Assembly: GCA_045535075.1 (NCBI GenBank)
Contig: JAZSKX010000002.1
Location: forward strand, 1-64,000
DNA: 64,000 nucleotides
Direction of reading: 5' to 3'
Source of the DNA: Candidatus Spyradenecus sp.
GTDB taxonomy: Bacteria; Verrucomicrobiota; Verrucomicrobiia; Opitutales; UBA953
Below, one piece after another: positions 1-61,000 of the stretch. The notes under the pieces were generated by a model that saw nothing but the letters and a program-made list of their open reading frames with translations, was not told the DNA's origin and ran no database searches. Numbering within the stretch: position 1 is the first letter of the stretch; each line of letters begins with the position of its first letter. The position numbers and the translations under genes are program-made.

Positions 1-234
1 ACTCGCCGAAATCCCGCCGCCGGAAACCGTCGCCGTATCGTCCGCAGAAACCGAGATTTCGTAAACATTCCCCGCGGGAACGCTCAGCGTGTAATCCGCA
101 GAAAAGCCCGGTCCGGTCGCCGTCCCGCCCGAAAAACTCAGACTCGTCGTCACGCGGCCCGATTTGCCGTCTTCGCTGAATGCGCCGCTCGTTTGCGGAA
201 CCGGCTGCGGAATCTCAATCTCGTTCAAAGACAT
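1..234 (-). CDS. hypothetical protein, N-terminal part (runs off left edge)
   Basis: Not in the ORF track. ATG at 234 preceded by GAAAGGT; the frame stays open to position 1: MSLNEIEIPQPVPQTSGAFSEDGKSGRVTTSLSFSGG...SVSADDTATVSGGGISAS. Confidence 0.7.
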   Translation of the reverse strand, partial: MSLNEIEIPQPVPQTSGAFSEDGKSGRVTTSLSFSGGTATGPGFSADYTLSVPAGNVYEISVSADDTATVSGGGISAS

Positions 235-450
235 AGATATACCTTTCTTTTTTTGGGGTAAAATTTAAAAGGGGAAAAACGTTTCGCTCTCTTTTATTTC
301 TTAAACAAAACTTCAAGAACACCCCCGCGCAAGCCGTTTTTCCTAAAAAAATATTTATCTTTAAATACTTGACTTTTGTAAAATCACACACTGCTACAGT
401 TCAAAGCGATTTCTGTTTTCTAATTTTTCGAGACCTGGCAAGATTCGGGC

Positions 451-2658: not shown

Positions 2659-2698
2659 GCATCCGACGCTAACAAACGCCGTTTCCCGACGAAGCGCT

Positions 2699-5600
2699 TT
2701 AGTCTCTCTTGGCGGTCGCCTTGCCTCGGCGCAGAAGGACCGCTGCAATAAGGCGTAGCAGGATCAGCCCTGCAAGAACTCCGAACGCCCATTTTTCATC
2801 AAGACGTTCCGGTCCGACGGGCGTCGGCGCATCGCGAAAGAAAACAACGGTCGCTCCCGCATCAACATGCGGATAGCGCTCGGTCTCAAACGCACAAAAC
2901 GCCGAGTCTCCCTCAAAGCACTTCGGCAACGCCGGAAGATCTTCACAAGACTGAACTTTGGAAACGGGAAGTCCGAAAATGCGTGAGATTTCACAACTTC
3001 CGGCCGAAAGATTTTCGGCGAAGCTCCATTCCACGCGAGCCGGATGAGCGCTCGTGCGAACAGCCTCGACGCAGTCTCCGTCGGCAAATTTTCCCCGATA
3101 AAGAATTTCAATACGCGTCAGCTGTTTTTCTTCTTTTTTTCTAAGCAACAAATAGAAATCGTTTTCTCCGGCATCGAAGATTTCTGCGGGAACGCCATCT
3201 GTCCGGACATCCAAAATTTCCGTTCCGGCGGCATCAATCCGGAGCAAATCCGTTTGCGCGACTTTAAGTTCAATGGTTTCGACGGTAACAAATCCGCTGC
3301 CTGAAATTCGGGAAAAACGCCGCACCGTCGGAGCGGAAAACGAACCTTCGCGCACATCCGTTTTCAACTTTCGCCAATCGGAAAGCGTTTTGTCCGTTGC
3401 TTTAAGAACAGCGCTTTTCCCGCTAAAATCGCCTTCGAGCACAGCCGCCGATTCCGGCGCGAGGCGGAAAACGTCATTCGCTTCAATCTCCAAACGACCG
3501 CTTTGTTCGCCCGCGTCCGGAGCGTTGACGGCATCAATCTTCGTTGTTCCGGAAAGTCGCTCAAAATATTCGACATTAAACGCAATTTCTCCGCGCATCG
3601 GCTTGGCGAAGCGTAATTCCCAAACATTTTCGCTCGGTGATTTTTTTCCTGCGGGAACGGCGTTTACAATATCGTCACCGAAGAATCTCGGAGCAAGCGC
3701 CGTCGCCGGCAAGCCGATACGCACAATCTGGCGTACGGCATTTTCGACATTATAAACACAATCAACATTCACGCGAGCGTAGCGTCCGAAATTAAGCGGC
3801 TCGACACGTTGCGTCCATGCTGCGGAAATTCGCGACTCGGAAGCTCCGACGGCAAATGTCGCGTTCCATTTGCTTCCGAAATAACGAAATGCGAAATCGG
3901 CATCCTCGTTCGGCTCGGTGTTTGTATCGGATTTTTCGACGGGAACATCGGCAGCTTTATCGCCCTTTTCCTCGGGAACGACTTCGACGATATTATTGCG
4001 GGAACGCAAGCGCAGTCGCAATCCCTCCTGCGCGTAAATACGAAATTCGCCGAGATGCCGCTGCGCGCCATTAAAAATAATACGCGGCACAGTCCAAGTC
4101 GGCGCGCCGACGGGAAAGGCTCCTGCGAGGGAGATGCGGAAATTTTCTTCTCCGACCAAAGATTTTTTCATGTGGAGCGTAACCGTCCGCAAATCTTCCG
4201 CATCTTGAGATTCAGACCAATAGGCGACAGCATCCCCGGAAACGGATTCAACTTCCAAGCCTTCCGGCAACGCAAACGAAAGGTTAAATATATCCGCCCG
4301 TGAAACTTCTGCCGTCAAATCCGTCACCAACGAAACTTTGTCTTGATTAAGCACGATACGATCATCGGCTGTAATGCGTAAGTTCGGTTTAACCTCGGAA
4401 AACGCGAGGCGAACAAGCGCATCGCCGGAAACGGAGCGAAATGCCCGTCGCAGAAAAACCGCTTTTCCGTCGGCGGAAGCTCGGTCAAGCAGAGTCGGAG
4501 AAAATTCCTTTTCATCGACGACTGCCAAGCCGGGAGCGACAACTTCATCGACTTGCAATTCGTCTCCGGTTGCGATCCCGACGGTTCTGACGCCGTCTTC
4601 GCAATTCAAAACATCCGGAGAAGCAAAGCTGATCATTTTTTCGAGCTCAAAAGGCGCCTGAGAGTAAATCGAGATTTCAACAGAGTCGGATTTCTTGGAA
4701 TCAAAAAGAACCGTCAGAATTTTATCGTGCCCGAAGTTCCACCGGCGAATGGAATTTCCTTCGACGCGAGAAACCGAGAAAGGTTCCGGAATTTTAATTT
4801 TAACTTCGTCAAATTCTCCCTGAACGGGCATCAGTTTGAGCAAATGAAATCCTTCAATCGTTCCCGATGCGGGAACATACAAATTTAAATCTTCCGCGAC
4901 GAGTTGAAGCTTTTCCCGGCTACGGTCGCGTTCCCGCGGATTCCAAAGAATACGTCGTGTTTCCAACGGCTTGAAGACGATTTGTCCGGTCTGCAAAGTT
5001 CCGCCGGGCGAATCCACTTTGAGCGTAACTTCGCCCTCCGCGCCGAGCCGACTGTCGGGGCGCGAAATCGATACGGAAACGACATCCGCCGCCGCATTCC
5101 CTGTCGGCAAGTTCATTCCGCGTGCGTCGCGCCTTAATGCCAGCTCATAAGCGAATTTTGCCGAAAATGTTCCGGAGCGATCCAAGACAATTTGATAAAC
5201 AATTCCGTCTTTTCCCCGTCGCCGTTCGAGACGAATCGGAGCCTCCGGAGCGTCTTTCCGAAAATCGGTAAGTACCGCCGGCGACGCCAATAAATCAAAA
5301 CGTTCCCCTGCCTTTCCCTTCACGCGAATTTCTCCCGAGGCGACGACTCGATCCGGAAGAATGCTCATATTCTGCGCAATCCGCTCGGCGATTTCCTGCG
5401 GGCGGGCAAGTTCGCGCTCGAGCTCATTTTCCTCAGCACGAAGCTCCGGCGTTCCCGTGAAATTCAAAAGAGCAAGCATTCCGCAAACAATCGGAAGTGT
5501 CGGGCTCAACTTCTCCTCTTTTTTAGAAAACTTTTTCTTTAGAGCAAAACCGCAGTCTATAAAAAGCAAAATCAGTTCCGTGACAACAAACGCGGCAATC

Positions 5601-8600
5601 AACGCGGGAATCCGATGTTCGATATCGCTCGTTCCGCAAACAAACGCACCGTAAAAACCGCATCTTCCCGCAAAGCGCAAAATTGCGCTTCGCCGCCAAA
5701 CCGCTCCTGCGGCGAGAAGCAACGCGCCCGCAAGCCAAATGAAAATTCCCGTATTCAAATCCATATGAAAGAACCGTTCCCCGAGTGTAGTCCACGGCGT
5801 AAAATGCGCGACAAACTGCTCCTGAGAGCCGAATGTAACAACGGACAAATCATAGCTCGGGCTGACTCCGTCGCGCAAAACAGAAGCTTCAATCATAATA
5901 ACGATGCTTAACGCGACCGCACAGACGAACCCGATTATAAAGCGCCAAATACGCAAGCGCGTCGTCAGCAAAATGATAAGCGTTCCCGCGAAAACACAAA
6001 ACGCGGGGAGTAACTCGCGATTTTGAGAGACGTCCGAAGCGATTGCCCGGAAAATATCTTCCCAGGATCCGCGATTGCGCCGCCCGTTTTCAAATTCAAC
6101 TCCGGAAAACGTTCCCGCGCCCTCCAAGCGAGCAGAAAGCACCGGAGCGTTCACCTTCGGGAGCGCGAGCGTCAACGTCGGATTTTCCGCCGAAAGTGCC
6201 GGCCCGCAAAGCGTAACTTCAAAAAATCCGCGCCCGTTTTGAGCTACGAGCGGAACGATGCAAGTGCTTCCGTCCTCCGAAAGAAGCGATTTTTCTTCGA
6301 GATTAAATTCTCCGATCGGCGATAATTTTTCGAGATCCGTTCCTTCCGGAAGCGTCAACAAAAGAGAGGCTTCCCCGGCATTTAAATATTCGAAGCGGCA
6401 AATCAAGTGCTGTTTAAGCGCGTCCGTGATATCGTCAACGCGTTCAAGTCTTCCCGTCGCGGAAGTGATGACGCAACGCGAAAGCTTTTTTTGCGGAAGC
6501 ATTGCGAAATCGAGCGTCAGCTCAAACGGACGTTGCACGTATTGAAATGCGCACAGCAAGACGTTCCCGCCGCGAGTTCCGAGGATGCTCCCGTCAATAT
6601 TTGCGCGCGGCACTTTTAAGAATGCAGAATTCTCGGCGCTTTCTTCGGGAGATGCGATGGCGACGGCTTCGTTGCTGGTAATAAAAATTTCGCCCTGTTC
6701 TCCCGAAACGTCTGCCAATCCGACTCCGGAGAAATCGGCAGAAGTCACGGAATCGGGAGCATCGGAAACCGGAATTTCAAAATGGATCCGCAGAGAAAAT
6801 TTTCCCTGACGCGGCGTGCGAAGCTGAGCGACAAGCAAGCCGTCTTTCACAGTAGGAGTAAAGAATAAATCGGAATCGGAGAGGCGGATAAATTTTGCAT
6901 TTTTCGGAAGTCTGATCCGGATTTCGTCAACGGCTTCCGCTTCTGAATCGCAGTCAATTACTGCGTTCCCGCGAATTACATTGCGTCCGATGTCGTAAAC
7001 GGTCGAGACGTTCCCGTGAAGAGCGGAAATCATTTTTTCGACATGAACTTCCGCAGTCCAAGTCGCTCCGCGCATCCGGAAAACCTGCTGCGGCAACGTA
7101 CCTTTTGTCTGCGGATAAAATTCTGCCGGCACCTCCGAAAGCCCGTCTAGCTTTGACGGAATTAAGCGCATATTTTTCGCTCCCGCGAAGCCGACGAACC
7201 CGCGAACAAAGCGCGCATCCGGACAACGCAAGCTGTGCAACACGCAATCCGTTTCAGTAGAACTCGCCGACTTGCTGACGGCAATGCGAATTTCCTGCTC
7301 GCCGGAAAGCGGCTCGGTAAAAACGATTTTCAGCTCACGAAATCCGTTTTTTGCAAGTTCCGCAAGTTCATACCCGGCAAGCAACCCCGTCTCGACTGAT
7401 TCAACCTTGTAATCCTCGGGCACCTCAACCCGCCACTCGTAAAGCGGCGCCGCCCGAATTTTGAGTTGCTGGCGCGAAACGGCAACGATTCGTTTCGTGT
7501 CAAAATAACACCGTGTCGTCTGCGAAACGGAAACGTCCGGACGGATCGCATCGACAAACAATTCCAAACTGTTCGGGCTGTTGGAAATGCGATAAACGGT
7601 CTGCTCGGCAGTTTCGTCAACCGGCAAAAGAAAATCGCCCTTCTGCGGGAACGCCGATGCCGCAATCTGCGTTACCCCGTTTTGCGGAAGCAATTCACTG
7701 CGCAAAACACCGTCGTTGATAATTCTCAAAAATTCGTTGAAGCGAACGCAAACGGCGGCATCGGGCTGATTTGCGACGGGAACAATTCTTAGAGGACGGA
7801 ATGTTGACGGCAAGGTTTCGAACACGCTTTGCGTTTCAATATTCAGGGAATAGGCGCCGCGTTTTCTTCGACTTAAAACAACATTGAGCTGTCGATTTCC
7901 GTCAGATTCTTCAACGCTCCAAGAGAGCAAATCTTCTCCGGAAACGCTCAAGACTTCGCCGCTCCCGTGCAAATCAAACACGAGATTGGAAAGCGTCCCT
8001 TGGGAAATCATCAAAGAAATTTCTTCCCGCTGACGCAACATTCCCGTTACAATCCGCCACTCACTGCAAGTGTCTGCAGAAAAAACGCAGGCGGAAAATT
8101 CCGGCGGTGTTCCCGAAACTTCCTGCCAACGCAAATCAAAGCTTCCGCTCCCGGGAAGAAAACCTTCGTAGGCATCGTTTTTTTTCTGAGGCACGGAAAC
8201 GCTCGACGGTGCAAAAAGAATTTCACCCTCCAAGCCTTTCAGAGAAAACGGAGCCACCTGAATCGCGGGAACGGCAAAATTCAGACGTTGCCACCCGTCT
8301 TCACGCGTAATGCGCGCATCCAATTCCAAATCAATTTCAAAATCTCCGCGCTTCGGAAATTTTAAGTAATAAATCGGCAACTTTGTCGTAGCGTCAATTT
8401 CGGTTCTGACCGAGAAATCCGAAGATTCCGAAAAATTCCGTAACGCAGCATCCCCGGAAAGCACCGCAATTTCAGCTCCGATTTCCCGCACGCTCGCCAC
8501 GGTGTGAATACGAAAATGCGCCGAATCGCCGTCAATTGTCCCGCGCAAAGAAAATGCCTCCAGCGAAACCGGGGCAAGCAACTCGTTCCCGCGCGCGACA

Positions 8601-10223: not shown

Positions 10224-10265
10224 AAAAAAAGCGTTCCCGCAAAGAATTTACGGGAACGCTTTTTT
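10224..10265. terminator. bidirectional intrinsic terminator after fabF, stem made of the CGTTCCCG motif pair
   Basis: A7-GCGTTCCCG-caaagaattta-CGGGAACGC-T6. Confidence 0.8.
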
Positions 10266-11936: not shown

Positions 11937-12683
11937 CTACATTGCCATGCCGCCGTCAACCGAAAAACACTGTCCGGTAATATAGCCGGCGTTTTCGGAG
12001 CAGAGGAAATTCACGGTCGCTGCAATATCTTCGGGAGCTCCGAAGCGCGCTAGCGGGATTGCAGTCTTAATTTTCTGTTGGACCTCCTCCGGAAGCACCG
12101 CCGTCATATCGGTCGTAATAAATCCGGGAGCAACGGCATTAACTGTGATAGAGCGCGTCGCGAATTCCCGCGCAAGCGTTTTCGTCAGGCCGATAAGTCC
12201 TGCCTTCGCGGCGGCATAATTTGCCTGCCCGGCGTTACCTTGAACTCCGGTTACGGAAGAAATATTTACGATACGCCCCCAACGTTTTTTCGTCATCGGG
12301 CGCAAAAGGCCTTTCACCCAATAAAACGCGCTCGCGAGATTAGTTTGGACGACATCCGACCAATCTTCGTCCGTCATCCGCATAACAAGTCCGTCCTTCG
12401 TAATTCCCGCGTTGTTGACGAGAATATCGACACAACCGTATTCCTTGAGAATTTCTTCGCAAGCGGCAGCGACTGCTTTTCCGTCGGAAACATCAACGGC
12501 CTTCGCAACAGCTTTGCCTCCGGATGCCGTAATTGCGTCCGCAACTCCGCCGCACGAAGCCGGATTTTTGGAAACGCAAATAACCGTGTGTCCGGATGCC
12601 GCCAAGCTTTCGGCGATTGCCTTGCCGATCCCGCGACCGGCGCCCGTTACGACTGCAACTTTCGGAGAATGTTCAAGTTTCAT
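11937..12683 (-). CDS. fabG: 3-oxoacyl-ACP reductase
   Basis: [39 protein letters not shown]; start set at MKLEHSPK. Confidence 0.95.
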
Positions 12684-12762
12684 AGTAGTGTAAATTTTCT
12701 CGAACAACGCCCAAAATGTCAATTTTTGAAACGCTTCTACGCGCGTAAAAGCGAGATGTTTT

Positions 12763-25857: not shown

Positions 25858-26037
25858 AAAGATATGTGTGGGCAATTTTAAGGAAAAGCAAAGTTCGTGC
25901 GCAGAGAGTCCACGCAGTTTCTTGAAAGCATGAGCGCTTTACGACGCTCCCGCAACAAAATTTTCCGCCTGCGGGAACGTAAAAAGGCGATCTTCCGGGA
26001 GAGAAAATCGCCTTTAGAAATTGTTGTTTTTAAGAAC

Positions 26038-33433: not shown

Positions 33434-33468
33434 AAAAAAACGTTCCCGTGAAACAAATCACGGGAACG
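33434..33468 (-). terminator. terminator after PEP-CTERM gene 1
   Basis: A7-CGTTCCCGTGA-aacaaa-TCACGGGAACG, giving a U-tract on the minus strand. Confidence 0.8.
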
Positions 33469-34286: not shown

Positions 34287-34405
34287 GCGGCTTTTTAAGC
34301 GCTCTTGGAGGCGGTTTTATGCGCGGAAAGAGCCGTGAAATCGGCATTCACGAATCTTCTCCGTTGCGGGAACGACCGGCAGAGCGTAGCGTTTTCAAAA
34401 GAAAT

Positions 34406-37400
34406 ATGGGCGATAGCGCGACACAGCAGGCATTTGACATTTTGGACCTTGAGCGCCCCGGCGTCATTGAAGCGTCGGCGGGAACGGGAAAGACATATTC
34501 GATTGCCGAAATCTATCTTGCCCTGCTCTGCGGGCACACACGCTACGCCCAAAATCCGCCGAAAGATTTTGATTTCGGGAGGAATCCGAATCCGCCTTCC
34601 GTGCGGGAAATTCTCGTCGTTACATTTACGGAAGCGGCAACGAACGAGCTGACCGAACGACTCCAAAAACGAATTCGCGAAGCCGTAAAAAAAGAGCTTT
34701 CGCCCGACGCGTCGGAAAAAGAAAAAAACGAACGCCGTCTGCTTCGCCTCGCCGACGCCGAATTTGACGAAGCGGCCGTTTCGACCATTCACGGATTTTG
34801 TATGCGCGTGTTGCGGGATTTCAGCTTTGAATGCGGCTTGCCGCCGGCGCTCGTTCCCGCAGAAAATCTCACGGAGGAAATGACGCGCTTTGCCGCACGA
34901 TTCCGCACGCGGGAAGCGTTGCTCGGGAACAAGCGCATTCTCGAACTTTCGACGAATGACATACGTTCGATTATCGACAAACTTGCTAAAAATCCGGACA
35001 TCGCAATCGCCGAACCGGACAACGGCGACCGCTCAGACCCCGACTTTCACGTCGCGACCCGAGGGCTCAAAGCATGGCTTACCGAACGCAAGAAAATTGA
35101 ACAACTCTCGTTCGACGAAGTACTGCTTCGCTTGCGCGATGCCCTGCGGGAAAAACCGCAACTCGCCCGGAAAATCGCCGCACGCTACCGGGTTGCGCTT
35201 GTTGACGAATTTCAGGACACAGATCCGGTTCAATGGGAAATTTTCAATCTCATTTTCGTCAGACAAAAGCGCCCGTTTTTCTGTGTCGGCGATCCGAAGC
35301 AGGCGATTTATGAATTTCGCGGCGGAGACATCCGCACGTACACGCAAGCCGTCGGTGAAATCCTTCGAAAGAACCGCGACAATCGCCTTCGCCTAATCAC
35401 CAACTGGCGCTCCGAAGCGACAATGATTGCGGCGTTCAACGAGCTTTTCCGCGCCGATTCCCAAATTGAGCCTACAGCCCAAGGCGTTCCCGTAAGCGGC
35501 AATCTGAATTACCTTGATGCCGTTCCCGCGAAGCGGAAAGAGGACTCCGAAAAAAACGCTCCCGCGATTTTTCTTCGAACCGGATTTTCCGGAGCGATTG
35601 AGGGAGCTCGCGCGAAAGTTCGGGAACGACTTGTCGAAGATATTCAAATTTTAATTACGAAACAAAAAATTCCGCCGGAAGCAATTGCCGTGCTTACACG
35701 CAAAAACAACGAAGCATTTGCAATTTTAAGAGAGCTGACGAAAAAAGGCGTTCCCGCCGTCATGAGCGCGACGGGCTCGGTGCTTGAAACGGAAGAAGCA
35801 TCTGCGATCGGCGAAATTCTCGACGCGATGCTCAATCCGAGCAGCACGTCCGCAATTCTTCGTGCGGCGGTTTGCGAATTTTTCGGTACTTCTTTTTTTG
35901 AATCACTCGCACAAAAAGGAAGCGGAGAAAACGAAGCGCTTTCGAAGTTGCGGGAACGCCTTTTTGAAGCGCAAAAAATCTGGGAGCAGCGCGATGTGCT
36001 TTCGGCGTTTTCATTGCTGGAAAAAACATATTCGTTCCGCGAAAATCTCGCGAAACTTTCCGAGGCTTCCCGACGACTTGCCAACGCGACGCACATTTTG
36101 GAAATTCTCCAAACCGAAGCCCACCAACGCCGCCTCGCGCCGCAAGCTCTTTTCAATCGTTTTTCGGAAATGCTGCGCTCGCCGAATCCCGACTCGGAAA
36201 AAGAAGCGCTGCGCATTGATTCCGACGCTCCCGCCGTACAAATTACCACGCTCCACAAAAGCAAAGGGCTTCAATACGAAATCGTGTTTCTCCCGAGCTT
36301 GTGGGACATGCCGATAAGCTCGGGCGGGAGCAAAGTCCGTTGCGTCCGTAGCCAAACACAAAGCGGCGACCGCCAAATACTGCTTCGGAAAAATGCCGCA
36401 ATTCAACACGCGGAAATCGAAGAAACCGCCCAAACGCACGCCTGCCTCAATTACGTCGCGTTTACGCGTGCAAAGAAAGCCTGCGTCGCCTACCACGCGA
36501 ATGAAGCCACTTCTTACGGGAAGAAAATCGAATCCTATTTTTCAAAAATCCTTTCCGCCGCCGGCATCTGCGGGAACGCAACCGGGAACGGCGAAGCGAA
36601 GCATTGGAAAATCCTTGCCGAAGACGACGCGCTCCCGGAAATTTTATTTCTCCGAGAAAAAAAATCGACGGCGCGCAACTCGCCGGACTTTCTGTTCCCG
36701 CAAAACAAACCGAAAAACGGTGCTTGGGGAATTTTCAGCTTTTCAAAAATTATCGACGACCACGAAACGCAAAACGGCAAACTCGAACCGGAAACCGACG
36801 ACGCCGAAAAAATCATCGACGGAACGATTCAAAAATCCGAGCTCTTCCAAGCTCCGGATTATTACGATCTCGCAGCCGGGAAAGAATTCGGGACTCTCGT
36901 TCACGCTATTTTCGAACAAGTCGATTTTAAAACGCGAAATAATCTCGATGCTCTAATCGAATTTTACAGAGAGCGTTTTCCGCAATGGCTCGCCGACGAC
37001 GCTTCCCGGGAAAAAATCAGAAAAATGATCGACGAAACGCTTGAGCTTCCCATCGACGGCAAGTCCGCCAAACTCAGCCAAATCGATTCGACGCGCGATG
37101 CATTACGGGAACTTGAATTCTTATTCCACGCCAAAAAATCCGAAAATTTGTATTCGGAACTTAATGACGTTTTTTCTTCTTGGGGCGGAATTTACAAACG
37201 CACAGCCGAAATTCATTGGGCGAGCGGAGACGCGGGAACGCTCAAAATAGAAGGACTGATGCACGGCTATATCGACTTGGTCGCAAGAACAAACGGGCGC
37301 TATTACATCGCAGACTGGAAAACCAATCGTGTGATGAAAAAAGACGAAAGAGCCATGTCACGTAAAAATCTTGAAGACGAAATCGCGGAATGCGGCTACG

Positions 37401-37600
37401 CGCTTCAATGGGCGATTTACGCCGTCGCCCTAAGAAAATTCCTGCGAAAAACACTGGGAGACGGCTATTCGACCGAGCGCAATTTCGGCGGAATCGCGTA
37501 CTTCTTTGTGCGTTGGAACACGGTTTTCTTTGACAACTCCCTGGACGACGGCAAACTCGACGCGCTCGAAAATATTTTATCGGAAAGGAATTCGCGATGA
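34406..37600 (+). CDS. recB: RecB-like UvrD helicase / PD-(D/E)XK nuclease
   Basis: IEASAGTGKT, ILVVTFTEAA, STIHGFC, LVDEFQDTD, VGDPKQAIYEFRG, TLHKSKGLQY, GYIDLV...IADWKTN; alternative start 34319. Confidence 0.9.
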   Translation: MGDSATQQAFDILDLERPGVIEASAGTGKTYSIAEIYLALLCGHTRYAQNPPKDFDFGRNPNPPSVREILVVTFTEAATNELTERLQKRIREAVKKELSPDASEKEKNERRLLRLADAEFDEAAVSTIHGFCMRVLRDFSFECGLPPALVPAENLTEEMTRFAARFRTREALLGNKRILELSTNDIRSIIDKLAKNPDIAIAEPDNGDRSDPDFHVATRGLKAWLTERKKIEQLSFDEVLLRLRDALREKPQLARKIAARYRVALVDEFQDTDPVQWEIFNLIFVRQKRPFFCVGDPKQAIYEFRGGDIRTYTQAVGEILRKNRDNRLRLITNWRSEATMIAAFNELFRADSQIEPTAQGVPVSGNLNYLDAVPAKRKEDSEKNAPAIFLRTGFSGAIEGARAKVRERLVEDIQILITKQKIPPEAIAVLTRKNNEAFAILRELTKKGVPAVMSATGSVLETEEASAIGEILDAMLNPSSTSAILRAAVCEFFGTSFFESLAQKGSGENEALSKLRERLFEAQKIWEQRDVLSAFSLLEKTYSFRENLAKLSEASRRLANATHILEILQTEAHQRRLAPQALFNRFSEMLRSPNPDSEKEALRIDSDAPAVQITTLHKSKGLQYEIVFLPSLWDMPISSGGSKVRCVRSQTQSGDRQILLRKNAAIQHAEIEETAQTHACLNYVAFTRAKKACVAYHANEATSYGKKIESYFSKILSAAGICGNATGNGEAKHWKILAEDDALPEILFLREKKSTARNSPDFLFPQNKPKNGAWGIFSFSKIIDDHETQNGKLEPETDDAEKIIDGTIQKSELFQAPDYYDLAAGKEFGTLVHAIFEQVDFKTRNNLDALIEFYRERFPQWLADDASREKIRKMIDETLELPIDGKSAKLSQIDSTRDALRELEFLFHAKKSENLYSELNDVFSSWGGIYKRTAEIHWASGDAGTLKIEGLMHGYIDLVARTNGRYYIADWKTNRVMKKDERAMSRKNLEDEIAECGYALQWAIYAVALRKFLRKTLGDGYSTERNFGGIAYFFVRWNTVFFDNSLDDGKLDALENILSERNSR

Positions 37601-39327
37601 CTCACCACGGCGACGGATTTGCCGGCAGCGAAGCACATTGGCTCGGCAGCGAAATTGAACTTCTTTCAAGCGACGCAGGATTTACGCCGAAACAAGCCGC
37701 GGAAATGCGCCGACTGACGGAAGCGCTCGCTAACGCCGTTTTTTCCGAGAAGGAAACATGCCTGCCGATTTCCGCCGCAGAAGACTTGGCGTTTCTCTGC
37801 GAATTGAGCAAAAACACAAATCCGATTATCTCCAGCGAGCCGAATGCCCGAACGCCGCTCATCCTAGATATCGAAACCGTAACAAACGCACCGACGCTCT
37901 ATTTCCGAAAACATTTCGCTGAAGAATGCTTCATTGCGCGCTCCGTTCGCGCCGCCGCAAATGCCCCGGAAGCTCCGATTTCCCCGCTTCAGGAAAACAT
38001 CATCGGCGCGGGAACGAAAGACGGATTCGGATTCGCGCTCACCGACGAACAAAAAAACGCAGTCCGGGCAATTCTCCGGAGGCAATTCACAATTATTTCC
38101 GGCGGACCGGGAACCGGGAAAACCAGCCTGCTGCTCCGGGCTCTCATCGGAATTCTTGCCGAAAATCCCGAAGCCTCAATCGAAATTGCCGCTCCGACGG
38201 GAAAAGCGGCAAACCGTATCCAAGAATCCATTACAAAACAATTTTCGGAAATCGACGACGGAAAACTGATTGCGACAGCGACAAAAAACGTTCGGGAGAA
38301 AATTTCAAAAATCGTTCCCAAAACGCTTCACCGATTGCTGTCACTTTCTGCGGGAACGACGCGTCCGAAGCCGATTCTCGCCGACGTCGTCATCATCGAC
38401 GAAGCCTCCATGATTTCGCAAAACCTGATGGCAACGTTATTAAGCGCCCTTCCCGCGCACGCGAAATTGATTTTGCTCGGCGACAAAAATCAGCTCGACT
38501 CCGTCCAACCCGGACACGTTTTCGGCGATTTTTATAACGCTCCCGCGCTATCGCGTTCCCGCGCATCGCTCGTTAAGAGCCATCGATTCAACGACGACAA
38601 TTTCGTCGGACAACTCGCCGCCGCCGTCCTCGACGGCAAAAACGAAAAAATCCCGAACCTGCTTTCGCGTGCCCCGGAAAACACGACCGTCGAGTATTGC
38701 GACGAGGCAAGCGCGCGGGAGCAAATCGAGCGCGTACTTCATCTGTGCCTTCCCGCCGAACTGAAAAATCCTTCGCCCGACATCGACCCGAAAACGATTT
38801 TGCACGCGCTGGAAAGTTCCCGCGTACTCACACCGAGCACCGAAGGCGTTTTCGGCGTACATGCTCTCAACGCCGCCGCACAAAAGATCTTTGCGCCGGC
38901 ATCCCGCGGCGAACATTTTCACGGACGCCCGATTCTCGTCACGCAAAACGCGCCGGAATTTTCGCTTAGCAACGGAGACGTCGGACTCATTTTGCGCTCG
39001 CCGGAAAACTTCAACTTTTATGCGTGGTTTCAGGACGGGAACGGAGAGGCCCGTTCAATTCCAGTCGTGCTTTTGCCCAAACACGAAACCGCCTACGCGA
39101 TGACGATTCACAAGTCGCAAGGTTCGGAATTTTCCCGCCTCGGCATTTTCTTTCCGAAAAACACGCGCCCCGGATTCTACACGCGCCAGCTTCTTTACAC
39201 GGCAATTACACGCTTTAAGGAAACGCCGCAGAGCAGACTTTGCTTCTGTTGCGATCCCGAATCCGTTGCAAGCGCCGTCAGCTCCGACGCACAATCGCAC
39301 TCGCTCCTTCCCGCGCGCCTGAAATAA
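37597..39327 (+). CDS. recD: RecD-like SF1B helicase
   Basis: ISGGPGTGKT, AAPTGKAA, TLHRLL, IIDEASM, LLGDKNQL, AYAMTIHKSQGSEF; ATGA overlap with recB. Confidence 0.92.
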   Translation: MTHHGDGFAGSEAHWLGSEIELLSSDAGFTPKQAAEMRRLTEALANAVFSEKETCLPISAAEDLAFLCELSKNTNPIISSEPNARTPLILDIETVTNAPTLYFRKHFAEECFIARSVRAAANAPEAPISPLQENIIGAGTKDGFGFALTDEQKNAVRAILRRQFTIISGGPGTGKTSLLLRALIGILAENPEASIEIAAPTGKAANRIQESITKQFSEIDDGKLIATATKNVREKISKIVPKTLHRLLSLSAGTTRPKPILADVVIIDEASMISQNLMATLLSALPAHAKLILLGDKNQLDSVQPGHVFGDFYNAPALSRSRASLVKSHRFNDDNFVGQLAAAVLDGKNEKIPNLLSRAPENTTVEYCDEASAREQIERVLHLCLPAELKNPSPDIDPKTILHALESSRVLTPSTEGVFGVHALNAAAQKIFAPASRGEHFHGRPILVTQNAPEFSLSNGDVGLILRSPENFNFYAWFQDGNGEARSIPVVLLPKHETAYAMTIHKSQGSEFSRLGIFFPKNTRPGFYTRQLLYTAITRFKETPQSRLCFCCDPESVASAVSSDAQSHSLLPARLK

Positions 39328-47128: not shown

Positions 47129-47300
47129 AGGTCAAAAAAAATATTTTTTTTAGCATACAGAATAAGTATCGGCTTGGCAAAAAAGTTTTCTCAAACACGG
47201 GAACGCGCTTGCGCGGGAACACAAAAAGCACGCTCACGGAAACCCGCTTCGCGCAAGCAATATTTTTAAGACGGGAACGCGACTCCGGCGAGAGCGTCAA

Positions 47301-47957: not shown

Positions 47958-48092
47958 GCCGGAAACCCTATTTAAAATACACGCGAGAGCCAATAATTTT
48001 CCCGTAAAAAAATCCGAACAAAAAATCGCGGCTTGCTCGCTTAATAGATGTTTTGAGTGTTAATGAGAATAGGTTAAGTTAGAGAGAGTTGG

Positions 48093-51803: not shown

Positions 51804-53237
51804 CTACGCCAAGCGTTTGCGCCAGTCGAGAATCTGCTTTTTCACTTGCTTCGGACCGGGCATGCCGACGCGTTCCCGCGACGCCATCGCCGTTTTTAAA
51901 TCAAAAACCTTCACCCAATCTTCTCCCAGTTTCGGGTGCACTTTTTTCACTTTTTCAAACGGGAGCGCATTCAGCGGAACGCCTTCCTTTTCGGCAAGCG
52001 CAACCAAATGCCCGACAACGTGATGCGCCTCGCGGAACGGCACGCCCGCACGCACGAGATAATCCGCCACGTCCGTCGCGAGCAAAAGCGGATCGGCAAC
52101 CGCCGCCGCGCAACGCTCCGCGCGCATCGCCGCTCCCGCGAGCGTTTCGCGCAGCACATCGAGCGAAATCATCACCGTATCAAAAGAATCAAATACGGGC
52201 GGTTTGTCTTCCTGCAAATCGCGATTGTAAGTCAGCGGCAAGCCTTTAACCATCGTAACGAGCGCGACCAAATTGCCATGCAAGCGCGCGGATTTCCCGC
52301 GAAGCAGTTCGAGCGAGTCCGGGTTTTTCTTCTGCGGCATCAGCGACGAACCCGTCGTAAACGTGTCGGGAAGCGCAACGAAACCGAACTCCGAGGAATT
52401 CCACAAAATCAAATCTTCCGCGATGCGCGAAAAATGCACGCCGCAAAGCGCACACGCCGACGCAAATTCGATAAACGTGTCGCGGTCGGAAACGGCATCC
52501 ATGCTGTTGCGCGTTACGCGCGCGTTCCCGCGGTCGTCGACAAAATCCATGGCGACGGCGGAAAATTCGCGATCGATCGGAAGCGTCGTTCCCGCGATCG
52601 CGCCCGAGCCGAGCGGCGACCAGTTCGCGTGGTCAAACACGGCGGCGAAACGCTCGCGGTCGCGCGAAAACATTTCGACATAGGCGAGCAAATGATGCGC
52701 GACAGAAACCGGCTGGGCGCGTTGCAGGTGCGTGAACCCGGGAATGTAAACGTCCTGATTACGCGCGGCAACATCGAGAAGCGTGTTCATCAGCGCACCG
52801 AGTTTTTCAAAAATTTTCGCGCTCGCGTCTTTGAAAAACAGACGCATATCGGTCGCGACCTGATCGTTGCGGGAACGCGCCGTGTGCAGTTTCGCGGCGG
52901 CGGGAACGCACTTCGTCAGCGCCTGTTCGATGTTCATGTGCACGTCTTCAAGTGCGATGTTCCACTCGAATTTTCCGGCTTCGATTTCTTTCAAAATCGC
53001 GTCGAGCCCGCGCACGATGTCGTTGCATTCTTTCTTGGAAATAATCCCGACGTGGGCGAGCATTTTCGCCTGAGCCTTGCTTCCCGCGACGTCAAACGGT
53101 GCGAGCCGCGCATCAAACGAAACGCTTTCGCTGAACTTGAGCATCAGCTCTGCGGGACCTTGCGAAAAGCGTCCGCCCCAAGTTGCCTGCTCTTTGCGAG
53201 CCGCCGTTTTTTTCGTCGTCGAAGTTTTCTTTGCCAT
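51804..53237 (-). CDS. argH: argininosuccinate lyase
   Basis: [58 protein letters not shown]. Confidence 0.97.
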
Positions 53238-53631
53238 GGCGGGAAAGCTTAAAGATTAAAGCTCAATCCTTAAAGATTAAAGAGAGCAACCGCACCGCTT
53301 CCACGCATCGAACATCAAGCGAAACCCGACAGTAAAACCTCCGAAAATCAACAGCTTAAAAAGTCGAACAATAATAACCGCAGGTAGCGCGAGTTACCTG
53401 CGGAACAAACGCGCAACCGCAATGCGCTTGAAAAGCGCAACAACTCCGGGACGTTTTACGAAAGTGAAAGTCTCCCGACCTTCGCCCCAAAAGCGTTTCG
53501 ATTTTCCCCCAAAAAAAGCTCTCGCAAAGAACGCTGCGGATTGCAGAAATTTTTTGCTCTGCGAAACCTTGCAAACTCTGCGAGAGAATTTATCCCCGAA
53601 CGAATAAAGTGCTTCTCTTTCGGAATTTTAA

Positions 53632-55092
53632 TTACAACCCTGCGGGAACGCGGCAGGAGAAATCGTGCGCGGTCTCGAATGCGTGAGCGGCGGCGAGTAC
53701 GTTCCCGTCGTCGAGGGCTTTCCCGATGAGCTGAAGCCCGATCGGCATGCCGGCGGCATCGAAGCCGCAGGGAAGCGAAACGGCGGGAAGCCCGGTCAGA
53801 TTCGCGGGAACGGTGCAAATATCGCCGAGATACATTTTGAGCGGGTCGGAGGTTTTTCCGCCCTGCGGGAACGCGGTTTCCGGCGTCGTCGGCGCAAGAA
53901 TCAGGTCGACATCGGCAAAGGCTTTTTCAAATTCGTTGCGGATGAGCGAGCGGATTTTTTGCGCGCGCAGGTAATATGCGTCGTAGTAGCCGGCGGAAAG
54001 CACGTAGGTGCCGAGCAAGATGCGGCGTTTGACTTCTTCGCCGAAGCCTTCGCCGCGGCTTTTTGCAAAAATGTCGATCGCGTCGGTCGCGCGCGCACTG
54101 CGATGCGTGTAGCGAATGCCGTCGAAGCGCGCGAGGTTGGACGAGGCTTCCGCCGTTGCGATAATGTAATAAGCCGGAATCGCGAGATTAATCGACGGGA
54201 GTGAAATTTCGCGAATTTCGCAACCTTGAGATTCATACCACGCCGCGGCTTTTTTTACGGCTTCGTCGATGGCGGAATCGCCGCCGAAAAATTCTTTCGG
54301 TAAACCGATTTTGCGCGGTTTCGCGGGAACGGAAAGTTGCGGGAACGTCGGCGTGCGCGCGCCCGGAAGCGCAGTGGAATCGTGCGCGCAAGGCGAGGCG
54401 AGCACGTCGTAAAGCGCAGCGGCGTCGGCAACACTACGCGCCATCGGTCCGACTTGTTCGAGCGAGGACGCAAACGCCACCGCGCCGTAGCGGGAAACGG
54501 TTCCGTAAGTCGGTTTGAAGCCGACAATACCGCAAAAACTCGCCGGCTGGCGGATCGACCCACCCGTGTCCGAGCCGAGCGCGAGCGGCGTCATTCCCGC
54601 CGCTACCGCCGCCGCCGAGCCGCCGGACGAACCGCCGGGAACGCAATCGGTGTTCCACGGATTGGCGGTTTTCGCGAAAGCGGAATTTTCCGTCGAGGAG
54701 CCCATCGCGAATTCGTCCATGTTGAGACGACCGAAAATGACGGCGCCGGATTTTTTCAAATTGGAAATGACGGTCGCATCGTAGGGCGAAACAAAGTTTT
54801 CGAGCATTTTCGACGCGCAGGAACATTTTTGCCCGGCAACGGCGATATTGTCTTTGATGGCGACGGGAACGCCGTCGAGCGCGCCGAGTGTCGTTCCCGC
54901 AGCGCGGCGTGCGTCGGCGGCGTCGGCTTGCGCGAGCGCGTCGGCTTCGTCCACGGAAAGAAACGCGCGAATTTTTCCGTCCGTTGCGCGAATGCGGTCG
55001 AGTTGCGCCTGCATGAGTTCCCGCGCGGAGATTTTTTTCTCCGCAAGGAGCGTTGCAAGTTCGGTTGCCGTTTTAAAATTTAAAGAATCCAT
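53632..55092 (-). CDS. gatA: Asp-tRNA(Asn)/Glu-tRNA(Gln) amidotransferase subunit A
   Basis: NMDEFAMGSSTENS, PGGSSGGSAAAV, GSDTGGSIRQPASFCG, AEASSNLARFDG, EVKRRILLGTYVLS. Confidence 0.97.
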   Translation of the reverse strand: MDSLNFKTATELATLLAEKKISARELMQAQLDRIRATDGKIRAFLSVDEADALAQADAADARRAAGTTLGALDGVPVAIKDNIAVAGQKCSCASKMLENFVSPYDATVISNLKKSGAVIFGRLNMDEFAMGSSTENSAFAKTANPWNTDCVPGGSSGGSAAAVAAGMTPLALGSDTGGSIRQPASFCGIVGFKPTYGTVSRYGAVAFASSLEQVGPMARSVADAAALYDVLASPCAHDSTALPGARTPTFPQLSVPAKPRKIGLPKEFFGGDSAIDEAVKKAAAWYESQGCEIREISLPSINLAIPAYYIIATAEASSNLARFDGIRYTHRSARATDAIDIFAKSRGEGFGEEVKRRILLGTYVLSAGYYDAYYLRAQKIRSLIRNEFEKAFADVDLILAPTTPETAFPQGGKTSDPLKMYLGDICTVPANLTGLPAVSLPCGFDAAGMPIGLQLIGKALDDGNVLAAAHAFETAHDFSCRVPAGL

Positions 55093-55917: not shown

Positions 55918-55925
55918 AAAGCGTG

Positions 55926-57066: not shown

Positions 57067-57102
57067 AAAAAAACGTTCCCGCAGACTGCTCCGCGGGAAC
57101 GT
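57067..57102 (-). terminator. terminator after PEP-CTERM gene 2
   Basis: A7-CGTTCCCGC-agactgctcc-GCGGGAACGT. Confidence 0.8.
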
Positions 57103-57139: not shown

Positions 57140-57874
57140 TTAGCGACGGCGGCGACGCGAACCGACAAGCGCCAAAGCGCCCAAGCCCGCGAGCAAACCG
57201 AACGCAGACGGCTCGGGAATCGGAGCGGTCGTAGCAGCGAGGCTCGACAGATCCTTCATGTTGGTTTCATTTCCGCCCATATATTCGTTGAAATAATAGG
57301 ACGTTGCGACAGAATCGTTGAAAGTAAGTGCGGAAATACCGGCCTGGTTTGTCTTCAAGCCTCCGGCAGCAACATACGAATTCACAATTGCATTTTTGCT
57401 AGCATCCAAAAGCGTAAATGCAACGGCTGTGCCGGAAGTCGAACCAAACGAATAAACCAATCCGGCGTAAGCGACATTGTCCCAACCGGTTCCTTCCGTG
57501 TCCCCGTTAAGATCTGCGAGATCGGAACTGCCTGTCCAACAGGTGCTACTCCAATTGATATTGTCTCCCCAGCGAGCATACAATCCGGAAGTATTAACTT
57601 TTCCACCGGAAGATCCCCCGTTAACCGTAACGCCGGTAGCAGTCCCTCCGGCATCGTAGCGAACAATATCTGTTCCCCAGCTAGCGGTTACCCCTTTTTC
57701 CAGAAGCGCGCGGAGCTCCGCGACATCAAGCGTCAAAGCGACGGTAAAGCTTCCTCCGAGCGTATTGTAGCTGGTATCTCCCCCGACAGCCTTATCCGCA
57801 CCGTCCAGCGAGACTGCATTTGCGAAAGCGGCGCCTGCGGCGAAAAGAGCCGCGAGTGTAATATATTTTTTCAT
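57140..57874 (-). CDS. PEP-CTERM sorting domain surface protein
   Basis: Signal peptide MKKYITLAALFAAGAAFANA; C-terminus IPEPSAFGLLAGLGALALVGSRRRRR. Confidence 0.93.
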   Translation of the reverse strand: MKKYITLAALFAAGAAFANAVSLDGADKAVGGDTSYNTLGGSFTVALTLDVAELRALLEKGVTASWGTDIVRYDAGGTATGVTVNGGSSGGKVNTSGLYARWGDNINWSSTCWTGSSDLADLNGDTEGTGWDNVAYAGLVYSFGSTSGTAVAFTLLDASKNAIVNSYVAAGGLKTNQAGISALTFNDSVATSYYFNEYMGGNETNMKDLSSLAATTAPIPEPSAFGLLAGLGALALVGSRRRRR

Positions 57875-57907
57875 AAGTTTCGTGATTGAGATTAAAATGA
57901 GGGGTTC

Positions 57908-57935: not shown

Positions 57936-58000
57936 GTGCATTTGAAGCGATTTTAGGGGTAATTTTGAAGCAGCACGACGCACTGTAATTTCCGGATACG

Positions 58001-58032
58001 AAAACCGTTCCCGCGGAAAACCACGGGAACGG
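58001..58032 (-). terminator. terminator after hsdR
   Basis: AAAA-CCGTTCCCGCGG-aaaa-CCACGGGAACGG. Confidence 0.7.
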
Positions 58033-58071
58033 GCAAATAAAGTAGCGCCTCCGCGAACTCTGCGAAAGACA

Positions 58072-61000
58072 CTATTTCCGCGAAAGCATTCGTGAAAATT
58101 CGTGTCTATTCGTGGTTTCGGATTCGGACGCCGCGCAATTTTTATCCCAGGATTTTGCGGAGGACGTATTGGAGAATGCCGCCTTTTTCCCGTAAGGCGC
58201 TGAAGCTTCTGAAACGATGAGCAATGTTTCTTCGTCCGAATAGCTCACGATACTCTTTTCTTCAAGAACTCCCGAGTTGTTCTCTTCAAAATTTTCGACC
58301 TGATCCATAACCTTTCGGAAAACTTCGGGGCAGTACTGCGGCGGATAGCCGTTTTTGATCAAACAAACTTTAATGTCAAATTTAAGCCGGTCCCGAATAA
58401 TCTGATTGTTGAGCCAATCAGAAAATGAAGATTTTGTATCGATAATTTCTTTCACTTTCTTTGCCAGAGACTTACACTTTTCATTAATAGAAACGCCTCC
58501 GACAAGTTTGTCTTCCCCGTACACAAAGTTGTGTCGATCGCGTAAATCCATCAAAATGTCGTAAAATGCTTTTTCCTCAAATGTAAGACCGATTTTTCTA
58601 AAGCTCTCACGATCGGCATTCATATTCTTTAAAATTTGAAGTGCCTGTTCCGTTGCATTCCGAATAATTTCGTTTGCGGTCTGTTCCTGTGTTTCTCCCG
58701 CTTCTTCTTCGGAGAGGTGTTTTCTCCTTTCGTGATATTGCCTGACGGTTTCTTCAAGCATTTCTTGGAATTTCTTCGCCGCCATTTGATTGGTCTTCCC
58801 GTATTCCCGAATCTGTTTGCGAAGCATTTTCACCAGCATTTCAAGTTTCGTGGCAGGCATCTTTACATCCGCCAGCTTTTCAAAAAACTCGGGGCTGAAC
58901 AAATCTTCCTGCTCGCCGTCATCAAGAATGCTTTCGACATCATTATATTTCAGCGCTTGTTCCACCATTTCGGAGACGCGACGATTCATCGTATCGGTAT
59001 CGATATCCGTGTCCGTTCCGCTCATTTTGCGGACAAATCCGGCAATCGCCATAAAGCACTGCGCCAGGGCGGATTCTTCTTCACCGAGGCCGCCGGACGG
59101 CTGACAAATGTCGTATGCCGCGCGCATTCTTTTCACGGTTTTCAGAAAATAGGTTTTGAAAGAAACCTTGGAAACTTTCTTCCCGCGATTTGTTTCCGAA
59201 CTCAGAAACCGCGCGGAAACAAAGACAAACTCCGCCGCTTTTGCCAAAAGCCTATACCGCTCCGCCGGGTCTCCGTCGGGCATGAGGAACGGACTCAGAT
59301 CATACTCGTCAAAAAGGTTTTTGAGGATTTCCAACTCTTCTCTGAAAACTGCCGCCGCCTGTTCCACGTCATCCGAAGACGGGGCAACAGAGGCATCTCC
59401 ACCATAGAGTTTCATTGCTTCCCGCATGTTATCCCGAATGCCGATGTAATCGACAATGAGACCGTAATCCTTGCCCGGAAACTTTCTGTTCACCCGACTG
59501 ATGGTTTGAATTAAGAGATGCTTTTTCAGCGGCTTATCGTTGTACAGGTATGTCAGCGCGGGAACGTCAAATCCGGTAATCCACATATCCACCACAATGA
59601 CGATTCGGAAGTTGGAGTTTTCCTGCCTAAATGCGGCATCAAGCGCCTCCGAGCGCTCTCCGTTCTTTACTCCGCCAAGGTAGTTATACATCTCTGCGGG
59701 ATCGTTGCTACCGACACTTGAAACCATCGCCATAAAAGGCATCGGCTTCAGTTCACGCAATTCCTCGTCAGAAACGACGGTTCCGTCCGCCACCTTCCTT
59801 TCCGCAAACCATTCGGGATACTTTTCCTGGAATTTTTTCAGAAGCGTATAGGCAATCGATCTGCCGGAACAAACGATCATAGCTTTTTGCACTCTTCCAG
59901 GATCGTTTTCACACGCAGACACATAATGATCGTGAATGTCAACGGCAAGGCGCTCCAAGCGGGACGGTTCGCCAAGAATGACCTCCATGGAGCTCATCGC
60001 ACGCTTACTTGCTTCGATATCGTCTCTCGTCGCCCCGTCATCCGCACACTTCTTATAGTAATTCTCAATCTCCCTGATCTTTGCCTGATCCAACAAAACT
60101 TTGGCAATGCGCGGATGATATTTGATGGAAACGGTAAGTCCGTCCGCAACCGCCTGATCCATCGTGTAGCGGTCAATTTCGTCCCCGAAAGTCTGATACG
60201 TTTCGGCAATCGGCGTTCCCGTGAACCCGACAAACGTCGCATTGGGCAACGCCTCTTTCAACACTTTCGCGTAGGGCTTGGAAACGACGGCACGCATATT
60301 CTCGTCCGCATCTTTGCTGAACTGAATCTTCTTCGCGTTTTCAATTTGCGTCCGGTGCGCTTCGTCGGAGAAACAGATAATATTTGCCCGGCTGTTAATC
60401 AGTCCGATCCTATCGTCTTCCCGATCACAGAATTTCTGAATCGTGCAAATGTAAAAACCGCCGCTTTCCCGTGCGCCGAGCTCTTCCCGCAACACCTTCC
60501 TGTTCGGGACAATGCAAACCTCGCCCAAATTTAAAAATTCTTTGCTCTTGGTAAAGAGCTTCGCGCCCTGCTTTTGCAATTCATCGCGGTCCACAATCAT
60601 AACGATGGTGGGCGAACCTATCGCGGGAACGTCCGCACAGCGCAGCGCCAATTGCCGGGCAAGAAACGCCATCGTGTAGGTTTTCCCGCACCCCGTAGCG
60701 CCGAAGTAAGTCCCGCCTTTCCCGCTTTTTGAAATCACGGATTTGACGATGCTCTGCTTCAGGAGCCGGGAAGCAAAGAACTGCGGATAGCGGCACACGA
60801 TTTCCCGCTCGGCGTAATCGTATTCGCTGTCCTGAAAATAAATATAGTCCCGGAAAATTTCGAGAAAGCGTTCGGGCGCAAACACGCCCCGAATCATCGT
60901 CTGCGTTTCCTCAAACGGGAGCGTCGAAACCTTGTCGCCGTCGTTCACACGCCGCCAGGCATAGAAATGCTCATAAGGCGTGCGCACCGTTCCCAAGCGC

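Follow-up and report, generated by a model that had tools for sequence, protein, structure and literature searches.

Why would a bacterial chromosome repeat one short, asymmetric word along its whole length, in genes and spacers alike? The question is raised by a stretch of 64,000 nucleotides (nt) from Candidatus Spyradenecus sp. (Verrucomicrobiota), hereafter the window, which corresponds to C9:1-64000 of an uncultured, metagenome-assembled genome (MAG) designated G000 (18 contigs, 1.949 Mb, 52% GC, 99.45% completeness). The assembly contains no 16S gene, and the taxonomic label was not confirmed from proteins: GatA is too conserved, its best listed matches (51-57%) being to Verrucomicrobiota/Opitutales MAGs among many other phyla, and XseA led to generic clusters only. 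A first-pass annotation of the window had drawn attention to the 8-mer CGTTCCCG (opposite-strand form CGGGAACG) and proposed that it serves as a signal for sequence-specific DNA uptake, i.e. for self-recognition. To our knowledge, uptake of this kind is firmly established only in two proteobacterial families. We followed the word, together with its 9-mer form CGTTCCCGC and its fuller 10-mer form GCGTTCCCGC, through G000, 18 other genomes of the genus and two sets of genomes outside it, i.e. 62 genomes from four sister genera and 12 genomes from 12 other families of the same order. A DNA-uptake (self-recognition) signal emerged as the best reading of the word, one that we put forward tentatively.

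The window contains 163 exact copies of CGTTCCCG/CGGGAACG, dispersed over positions 75..60631 on both strands (~106 on the plus strand and 57 on the minus strand), in genes in every frame and in intergenic DNA. In 100 dinucleotide-preserving shuffles of the window, 6.17 copies were expected (standard deviation 2.77, maximum 12) and none of the shuffles reached 163. Each of the 19 positions listed by the first-pass annotation proved to be an exact copy, and one additional copy at 1224 had been missed, bringing the number in the first 9 kb to 20. The intergenic copies that it had listed, two complete ones (47198, 47272) and a 7-mer (47214), are likewise present (47198..47279, minus strand), in the spacer between HlyD-like and HAD-like genes (open reading frames (ORFs) 46037-47128 and 47301-47993, both on the minus strand).

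The whole genome of G000 carries 5,159 copies of CGTTCCCG/CGGGAACG (2.65/kb), placing the word at the top of all 8-mers, where Markov models of order 1, 2 and 3 predict 183, 268 and 587 copies, respectively. The excess is stronger than originally stated. The expectation of the maximal-order model (5,030) was left unused because the sub-words on which it relies are mostly made of the word itself, rendering the comparison circular. Among the longer forms, CGTTCCCGC occurs 3,244 times and GCGTTCCCGC 1,614 times (0.83/kb), as compared with 8 copies of the 10-mer written backwards; such backwards versions of the word served as abundance controls in the survey of genomes. Densities are alike on the nine contigs larger than 90 kb, ranging from 2.39 to 2.85/kb. 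The logo of the copies reads g-CGTTCCCG-C/t-g/a, with a preceding G at a frequency of 0.47 and a following C (0.63) or T (0.25), then G (0.44). Outside positions 0 to +10 it is flat; the word thus does not belong to any longer repeat.

Genic copies make up 82% of the total, and the density in non-coding DNA (3.06/kb) exceeds that in coding DNA (2.57/kb). All six frames are occupied, antisense frame 1, in which the word encodes AGT (1,453 copies), and sense frame 2, in which it encodes VPA (1,141 copies), being the most common, while each of the remaining four frames accounts for 262-706 copies. The 4,215 copies in coding sequences (CDS) compare with 463 following shuffling of synonymous codons within genes (10 runs), 155 following permutation of codons (10 runs) and 1,522 in a codon-pair Markov model trained on the same genes (5 runs). 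The 941 non-coding copies compare with 16, 30 and 66 copies expected from Markov models of order 1, 2 and 3. It had been claimed from the window that the word appears in both orientations and several frames and that no codon pair can explain it; both claims extend to the entire genome, where coding and non-coding DNA are used alike and the excess persists in all three codon-based models. Within the window, two giant ORFs on the minus strand, 13798-25875 (4,025 aa) and 2699-9211 (2,170 aa), contain the word at high density. Pfam gives no match for the 2,170-aa protein, and between 13 and 25 kb nearly all copies lie on the plus strand, antisense to the 4,025-aa ORF.

The word is specific to the genus: it occurs above the control level in 19/19 genomes of the genus, in 0/62 genomes of the sister genera and in 0/12 genomes of the other families. 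Each of the 18 other genus genomes contains 138-3,301 copies of GCGTTCCCGC (controls 8-35), whereas the 12 genomes of the 12 other families contain 0-49, which corresponds to the control level; the 9-mer did not exceed its backwards control in any of the 62 genomes from the sister genera, which are the other four of the family. Within the genus, two groups are apparent. G000 and 14 further genomes carry 3,060-5,581 copies of the 9-mer and form the high-density group, and four genomes, G001, G002, G013 and G014, carry 340-760 copies (controls 37-87) and form the low-density group, with 8-mer densities of 0.65/kb in G001, 0.65/kb in G013 and 0.32/kb in G014. No comparable word of their own was found in the sister genera by counting k-mers in 57-100 kb of one genome per genus. 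Full-text literature, from which most subscription journals were absent, yielded nothing on this word and nothing on uptake sequences in Verrucomicrobia/Verrucomicrobiota.

The nearest relatives of G000 are low-density species, as it shares 79-82% nt identity with G001 and 79.6% with G013 (over 1.06 Mb), compared with 73-76% for the high-density genomes G003, G007 and G010 and ~70% for G014. Accordingly, the tree of the acrAB block (6.1 kb) groups G000 with G001 (support 100/100), a placement that implies two or more independent changes in word density. At orthologous columns, genomes lacking the word carry variants of it with 1-3 substitutions and no indels. Column 3102 reads CGTTCCCG in G000 and G007 but its reverse complement in G003, and an identical non-word, CGGTCGCG, is found there in G001 and G014. 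Thus, copies were written in place, and repeatedly so. Sites of G000 are also sites in G010 in 13/18 cases, in G007 in 18/20 and in G003 in 14/20, in small samples against a background 8-mer identity of 15-25%. In contrast, 557 of 2,604 G000 sites (21.4%) are retained in G013, which equals the background of 21.6%, although 557 of the 702 sites of G013 (79.3%) are common to G000. G001 behaves likewise, with 52 of 249 G000 sites retained and 52 of its own 61 sites common to G000. High-density lineages actively keep the word, whereas in the low-density sister clade it drifts like ordinary sequence.

The direction of change was assessed at positions inside G000 copies at which G000 and G013 differ. 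High-density genomes side with G000 in 16/18, 21/21 and 19/20 cases (background 52-55%), and the outgroup G014 matches the base of G000 53 times and that of G013 34 times (background 52%). Therefore, both gains in G000 and losses in G013 must be assumed. Polarization with G014 gives a mixed picture and a single history is not claimed; as a rough estimate rather than a fit, we infer that about half of the G000 copies are younger than the split from G013. Differences between G000 and G013 are distributed unevenly over the word, with most of them at position 4 (924) and the fewest at positions 6 and 8 (229 and 184), the others ranging within 184-646. One-off variants of the word within G000 are rare at positions 4, 6, 7 and 8 (26-177) and common at positions 1, 2, 3 and 5 (200-857). 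The positions with rare variants probably matter most to whatever reads the word.

The word has also left its mark on proteins. In G000, observed-to-expected ratios of the encoded tripeptides are 4.96 for AGT, 5.05 for VPA, 3.78 for RER and 2.85 for RSR, while the corresponding ratios in G013 are 2.89, 3.06, 2.69 and 2.13. Non-synonymous differences from G013 affect 18.2% of the codons that the word covers, compared with a background of 13.4%, and word density is 3.1-4.8/kb in segments that are <70% identical and 1.6-2.0/kb in segments that are >86% identical. For the uptake signal sequences (USS) of Pasteurellaceae, the study by Findlay and Redfield (PMC2817400) describes an approximate doubling of the encoded tripeptides and a preference for poorly conserved positions.

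Neighboring copies in the arrangement CGTTCCCG-loop-CGGGAACG are strongly over-represented at start-to-start distances of 14-24 nt, with a peak at 20. With loops of 4-22 nt, 164 such inverted pairs were counted, versus 26 pairs in the opposite arrangement. Intergenic DNA holds 144 of the 164: convergent genes flank 57, divergent genes flank 3, and 84 follow a gene whose neighbor points the same way, so that 141 sit at the 3' ends of genes. A T-rich 3' flank is present in 104 of the inverted pairs, an A-rich 5' flank in 102 and both in 74. The four hairpins of the window are predicted to fold at -19.6 to -26.4 kcal/mol, with z-scores from -4.1 to -6.4. The most stable one (10232..10258, minus strand; -26.4 kcal/mol, z -6.4) folds better than 200 of 200 shuffled sequences and resembles a bidirectional intrinsic terminator, having an A-tract upstream and a T-tract downstream; it lies past the 3' end of a FabF-like gene (10280-11533, minus strand). 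An inverted pair with an 11-bp stem at 33441..33468 (plus strand; -19.6 kcal/mol, z -5.6) has an A-tract upstream only. In the two remaining candidate terminators a T-run follows the pair: one is located at 57074..57101 (minus strand; -26.3 kcal/mol, z -4.3) downstream of a PEP-CTERM gene (57140-57874, minus strand), the other at 58006..58031 (minus strand; -24.5 kcal/mol, z -4.1) downstream of a type I HsdR gene (58072-61617, minus strand). Recruitment of inverted pairs of uptake sequences as terminators has been described for Neisseriaceae and Pasteurellaceae (PMC3630211; PMC1852404; bioRxiv 10.1101/2025.10.24.684340).

In G000, 12 stretches of at least 3.5 kb are free of the motif; several of them have a GC content of 40-43% and carry restriction-modification genes. 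They include C12:44634-48942 (40% GC), which contains the full-length C5 methyltransferase of G000, C2:18463-22107 (41% GC), C5:229382-234755 (43% GC) and C8:20791-31779. The islands C5:229513-234342 and C8:23173-35120 have 0 and 0.42 copies/kb, respectively. In the window, the last copy is located at 60624, and the motif-free stretch that follows (60632..64000; ~43% GC, 0.434) comprises part of the type I HsdR gene and a DEAD/ResIII helicase gene and looks recently acquired. Absence of the word is a sensitive marker of recently acquired DNA. Restriction-modification or small phage-like genes are carried by these motif-free stretches, which are mostly of low GC, and one stretch has an ORF of 1,609 aa. 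A search for phages retrieved 29 IMG/VR contigs containing an inverted word pair, all of them with 0.10-0.63 copies/kb and most with 56-73% GC, none of which was recognizable as a phage of the genus.

Exchange of DNA within the genus is evident in the window itself. The tract with a conflicting tree covers argH (51804..53237, minus strand): over 51808-53283 it is 96% identical to G007, while neighboring genes are ~76% identical, and the tract composed of argH and the start of gatA (51804-54000) is 96-98% identical to G007. In the argH tree, G000 is grouped with G007 (support 99/98) instead of with G001 as in the acrAB block. Therefore, homologous exchange between species of the genus occurs and is recent; the genome is a recombining mosaic.

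Since copies arise by in-place, partly convergent substitutions with a cost in amino acids, and since they are maintained in some lineages and decay neutrally in a sister lineage, a reader that recognizes the sequence and is coupled to a drive must exist. We infer that this reader acts at DNA uptake and that it is a pilus-associated protein. In this scenario, CGTTCCCG/GCGTTCCCGC would be the 'self' word of the genus. A factor specific for its sequence would read it in double-stranded form, most likely during uptake in natural transformation through the type IV pilus, ComEC and DprA. Fragments bearing the word would be taken up and recombined more often than word-free ones, and substitutions that create or improve a copy would consequently spread by molecular drive. 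Copies would build up wherever they are tolerated: in codons under weak constraint, whatever the frame, in spacers and in terminator stems, which would receive them as inverted pairs. Foreign DNA would remain word-free. Candidate machinery is present in G000, which encodes one secretin (984-aa gene), a cluster of three T2SSE ATPases (two PilB-like and one PilT-like), and at least six predicted pilin-like proteins, four of them from adjacent genes next to ruvX and near recJ and two from elsewhere.

The likeness to known uptake sequences is extensive. The DNA uptake sequences (DUS) of Neisseriaceae are, according to PMC3630211 and bioRxiv 10.1101/2025.10.24.684340, short non-palindromic words with thousands of copies on both strands in genes and spacers, which form inverted-pair terminators, are restricted to a clade, are rare in foreign DNA and are common to recombining species, as is the word studied here. 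With USS (PMC2817400), it shares the use of tolerant coding frames, enrichment of tripeptides, location in poorly conserved regions and absence from genes without homologues in relatives. Every pattern hallmark of DUS and USS that was tested was found, with two exceptions, namely dialects and a detectable ComEA. The tests to which the first-pass annotation had submitted its proposal (codon shuffling, strand polarity, competence genes and methyltransferases) came out in favor of uptake, with no ComEA and no receptor to complete the picture. Uptake-directed self-recognition is thus the reading we prefer, although we would not call it probable. It appears possible, and a little more doubtful still, that this is an uptake-sequence system unrelated to the known ones and outside the Proteobacteria, residing in a small-genome genus of the Planctomycetes-Verrucomicrobia-Chlamydiae (PVC) type and being active in 15 species but inactive or weak in four, among them the closest sisters of G000.

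Several observations weigh against the uptake reading. ComEC and DprA are present in 31/31 genomes, including the 12 word-free genomes of other families, and their presence thus does not discriminate. For ComEA, the sole match to HHH_3 and TIGR00426 in G000 was a Tex-like frame of 805 aa that scored under the family cut-off. The check for competence genes suggested by the first-pass annotation therefore found ComEC, DprA, a secretin, PilB/PilT-like ATPases and pilins, and no ComEA. The low-density species retain the pilin cluster, the secretin and the ATPases intact, and neither a gene or allele that co-varies with density nor a receptor candidate was found, G013 having been compared by synteny over 1.485 of 2.113 Mb (70%). 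Dialects, which had been anticipated for related genomes, were not found within the family; the motif survey yielded sharing throughout the genus and absence outside it, and the only split within the genus is that between high and low density. Compared with DUS, the sequence is unrelated, the core is 8-10 nt long instead of 10-12, the host is a PVC-like bacterium and not a proteobacterium, and no ComP-type receptor could be identified. The word is also shorter and denser than DUS and USS, the 9-mer reaching up to ~3.3/kb in G003. Only ~6% of its copies (328/5,159) are paired, whereas about half of DUS/USS reside in terminators according to bioRxiv 10.1101/2025.10.24.684340. In comparison with USS, AT-rich flanking segments are missing and enrichment of tripeptides is ~5-fold instead of ~2-fold. 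Strand usage is not perfectly even, as 2,496 of 4,556 copies (54.8%, versus 45.2% lagging) have CGGGAACG on the strand inferred to be leading, with the leading strand taken as the G-rich strand, the word masked and only positions with |skew| > 0.03 considered, and as antisense copies in CDS outnumber sense copies by 2,537 to 1,678. Finally, genes were called by a crude heuristic of our own (ORF plus codon score; 1,360 genes covering 84% of G000), replication strands were deduced from GC skew on draft contigs, and the source is a MAG.

Candidates for the cause of the density difference were examined and discarded. Loss of pilus genes was rejected, as the same secretin, ATPases and pilin cluster are present in low-density species. 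A second secretin (a frame of ~774-878 aa) was found in seven genomes of the genus, i.e. G001, G002, G013 and G014 and also the high-density genomes G004, G012 and G018, and was rejected as a correlate on that account; no second one was seen in G000 or in the rest of the genus genomes searched, among which G005 gave no secretin match of any kind. A fourth T2SSE ATPase is present in G001, G002, G013 and G014 and absent from G000 and G003, these six being the genomes checked. Both extra genes are distributed according to phylogeny and independently of word density. Four motif-rich segments that seemed to be exclusive to G000 were rejected as drivers, too, because they represent rearrangements bracketed by synteny and not gains; they encode housekeeping functions (FtsK, PdxJ, a class I tRNA synthetase, glutamine synthetase and thiamine genes).

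A reader coupled to a drive need not act at uptake. The word could be a Chi-like intracellular signal for recombination and self-protection, in which case RecBCD or another end-processing enzyme would spare and recombine word-bearing DNA, exerting the same drive with no specificity at uptake. We regard this as unlikely, albeit worth serious consideration. A cognate enzyme is available: RecB-like (UvrD + PD-(D/E)XK; 34319-37600) and RecD-like genes are predicted in the window (34319..39327, plus strand) and RecC on another contig (C2:9601-13044, including 12085-13017). Between G000 (high density) and G013 (low density), aa identity is 62.6% for RecB and 60.6% for RecC, an unusual divergence given the median of 85.7% for orthologs, and, as far as such identities tell, RecBCD is evolving unusually fast in the genus. 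Chi is likewise a species-specific non-palindromic word (5-8 nt), its G-rich form is favored on the leading strand, as is to a slight degree CGGGAACG, and preferential recombination of word-bearing linear DNA would be equally blind to frame and strand. However, the polarity is weak and mostly reflects gene orientation. The main strand effect is the antisense preference (63% for genes on the leading strand, 56% for those on the lagging strand). In 20-kb windows, strand skew of the word is correlated to the same extent with GC skew and gene strand (r = -0.57 and -0.56, respectively), and the split of non-coding copies (439 leading, 393 lagging) is not significant. This pattern is not a polarity of the Chi or KOPS (FtsK-orienting polar sequences) type, as had been anticipated in the original proposal; KOPS display a very strong strand skew that switches at the terminus. 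Density (2.65/kb) and enrichment (10-28-fold) are moreover far above what is known for any Chi, exceeding those of E. coli Chi (~1 per 4.5 kb) by an order of magnitude, and inverted terminator pairs are not a trait of Chi. Finally, RecB of G000 is closer to that of low-density G001 (68% nt identity over 4.9 kb) than to those of high-density genomes, with which only fragments align; therefore, RecBCD does not track density.

It is slightly less likely still that an abundant chromosome-organizing or other DNA-binding protein binds the word, which would then be kept by ordinary per-site selection with no link to gene transfer. Similar densities on all large contigs and maintenance of positions in high-density species would be in line with such a role, but per-site selection would have to change amino acids at thousands of places, maintenance was lost in the sister clade with no visible change in the genes checked, and no candidate protein was found; absence from islands and recruitment into terminators are more simply explained by drive. 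A bias in modification or repair, in which a methyltransferase or a mismatch corrector converts near-matches into the word in the manner of HIP1 (highly iterated palindrome 1) or very-short-patch repair, we consider improbable. The scarcity of one-off variants at positions 4, 6, 7 and 8 would agree with it, the prevalence of position 4 among differences from G013 would fit directional correction, and G000 has two C5-methyltransferase matches and three type I HsdM genes. HIP1 of cyanobacteria is also a hyper-abundant, clade-specific octamer in coding and non-coding DNA; however, it is palindromic and associated with cognate methyltransferases, whereas the present word is asymmetric and no conserved methyltransferase was found. 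C5 methyltransferases (PF00145) occur in 10/19 genus genomes (9/18 plus G000) and N6/N4 methyltransferases (PF01555) in 16/19, not including G000. Both are absent from G004 and G006, which nevertheless contain 2,112 and 2,984 copies of the 10-mer; the genus-wide survey covered these two families. The full-length C5 methyltransferase of G000 must be recent and not shared, as it is located in a motif-free island of 40% GC, type I enzymes recognize bipartite sites, G000 has no Vsr, and the depleted T-to-C and T-to-G variants at position 4 cannot stem from repair of deamination damage. The methylase explanation, named at the outset as the main alternative, thus lacks a tested methyltransferase family that is conserved along with the word. 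A by-product of composition, codon or codon-pair usage, a protein motif or a mobile repeat is already refuted: that the two commonest frames encode AGT and VPA could speak for it, but all six frames are used, non-coding density exceeds coding density and all shuffles remain far below the observed counts. Repeats of the REP (repetitive extragenic palindromic), BIME (bacterial interspersed mosaic element) or MITE (miniature inverted-repeat transposable element) type are longer, have conserved flanks, keep to spacers and spread by insertion, whereas the flanks of the word are unconserved, 82% of its copies are genic and orthologous copies differ by substitution, not by insertion.

Other repeats were encountered in the course of the survey. 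In G014, GGTTGGTGGT (1,487 copies; 0-4 in the other 17 genus genomes) was considered as a dialect and rejected, because it is a separate intergenic repeat and not a dispersed word. In 87 kb of this genome it has 81 copies, which form G/T-rich intergenic arrays with a spacing of ~18 nt, mostly at contig ends. Its fuller form is GGGTTGGTGGTG/CACCACCAACCC, and other conserved short blocks are interleaved with it, for instance at L096:100-700 and L093:2100-2650 (contigs L093-L102). In sister genus g14, CGTACCCG (scanned in G031) was rejected as a one-letter dialect as well, since its 33 copies per 100 kb have flanks with a 3-base periodicity, which points to a protein repeat. The same genome (L108-L112) contains a repeat of ~19 nt, TGGTAATGTCGTCCCTACC, with 8-11 copies in 100 kb. 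In sister genus g16, G033 (L118-L122) contains a 17-nt palindromic repeat, CCCAGGGCGTTGCCCTG, at ~0.23/kb (13-14 copies in 60 kb), which has a REP-like or terminator-like look.

Origin, receptors and evolutionary cause of sequence-specific DNA uptake are long-standing questions, and in Pasteurellaceae the USS receptor is reportedly still only predicted (PMC12616744). Sister species share gene order and differ four-fold in word density, which would offer a comparative handle on the reader and on rates of gain and loss. Provided that the uptake reading is correct, the on/off contrast at ~80% nt identity would be a natural experiment that could pinpoint the receptor and would reveal how fast the word is written and, after the drive has ceased, its decay at the neutral rate. 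It would also constitute a third independent uptake system, in a distant phylum, and would indicate that the phenomenon is general. If the reader acts elsewhere than at uptake, there would still be a drive that is strong and unexplained, by which codons are rewritten in their thousands and the terminators of the genus are built. In practical terms, the word can be used as a marker to assign metagenomic contigs to this genus and to spot foreign islands within it.

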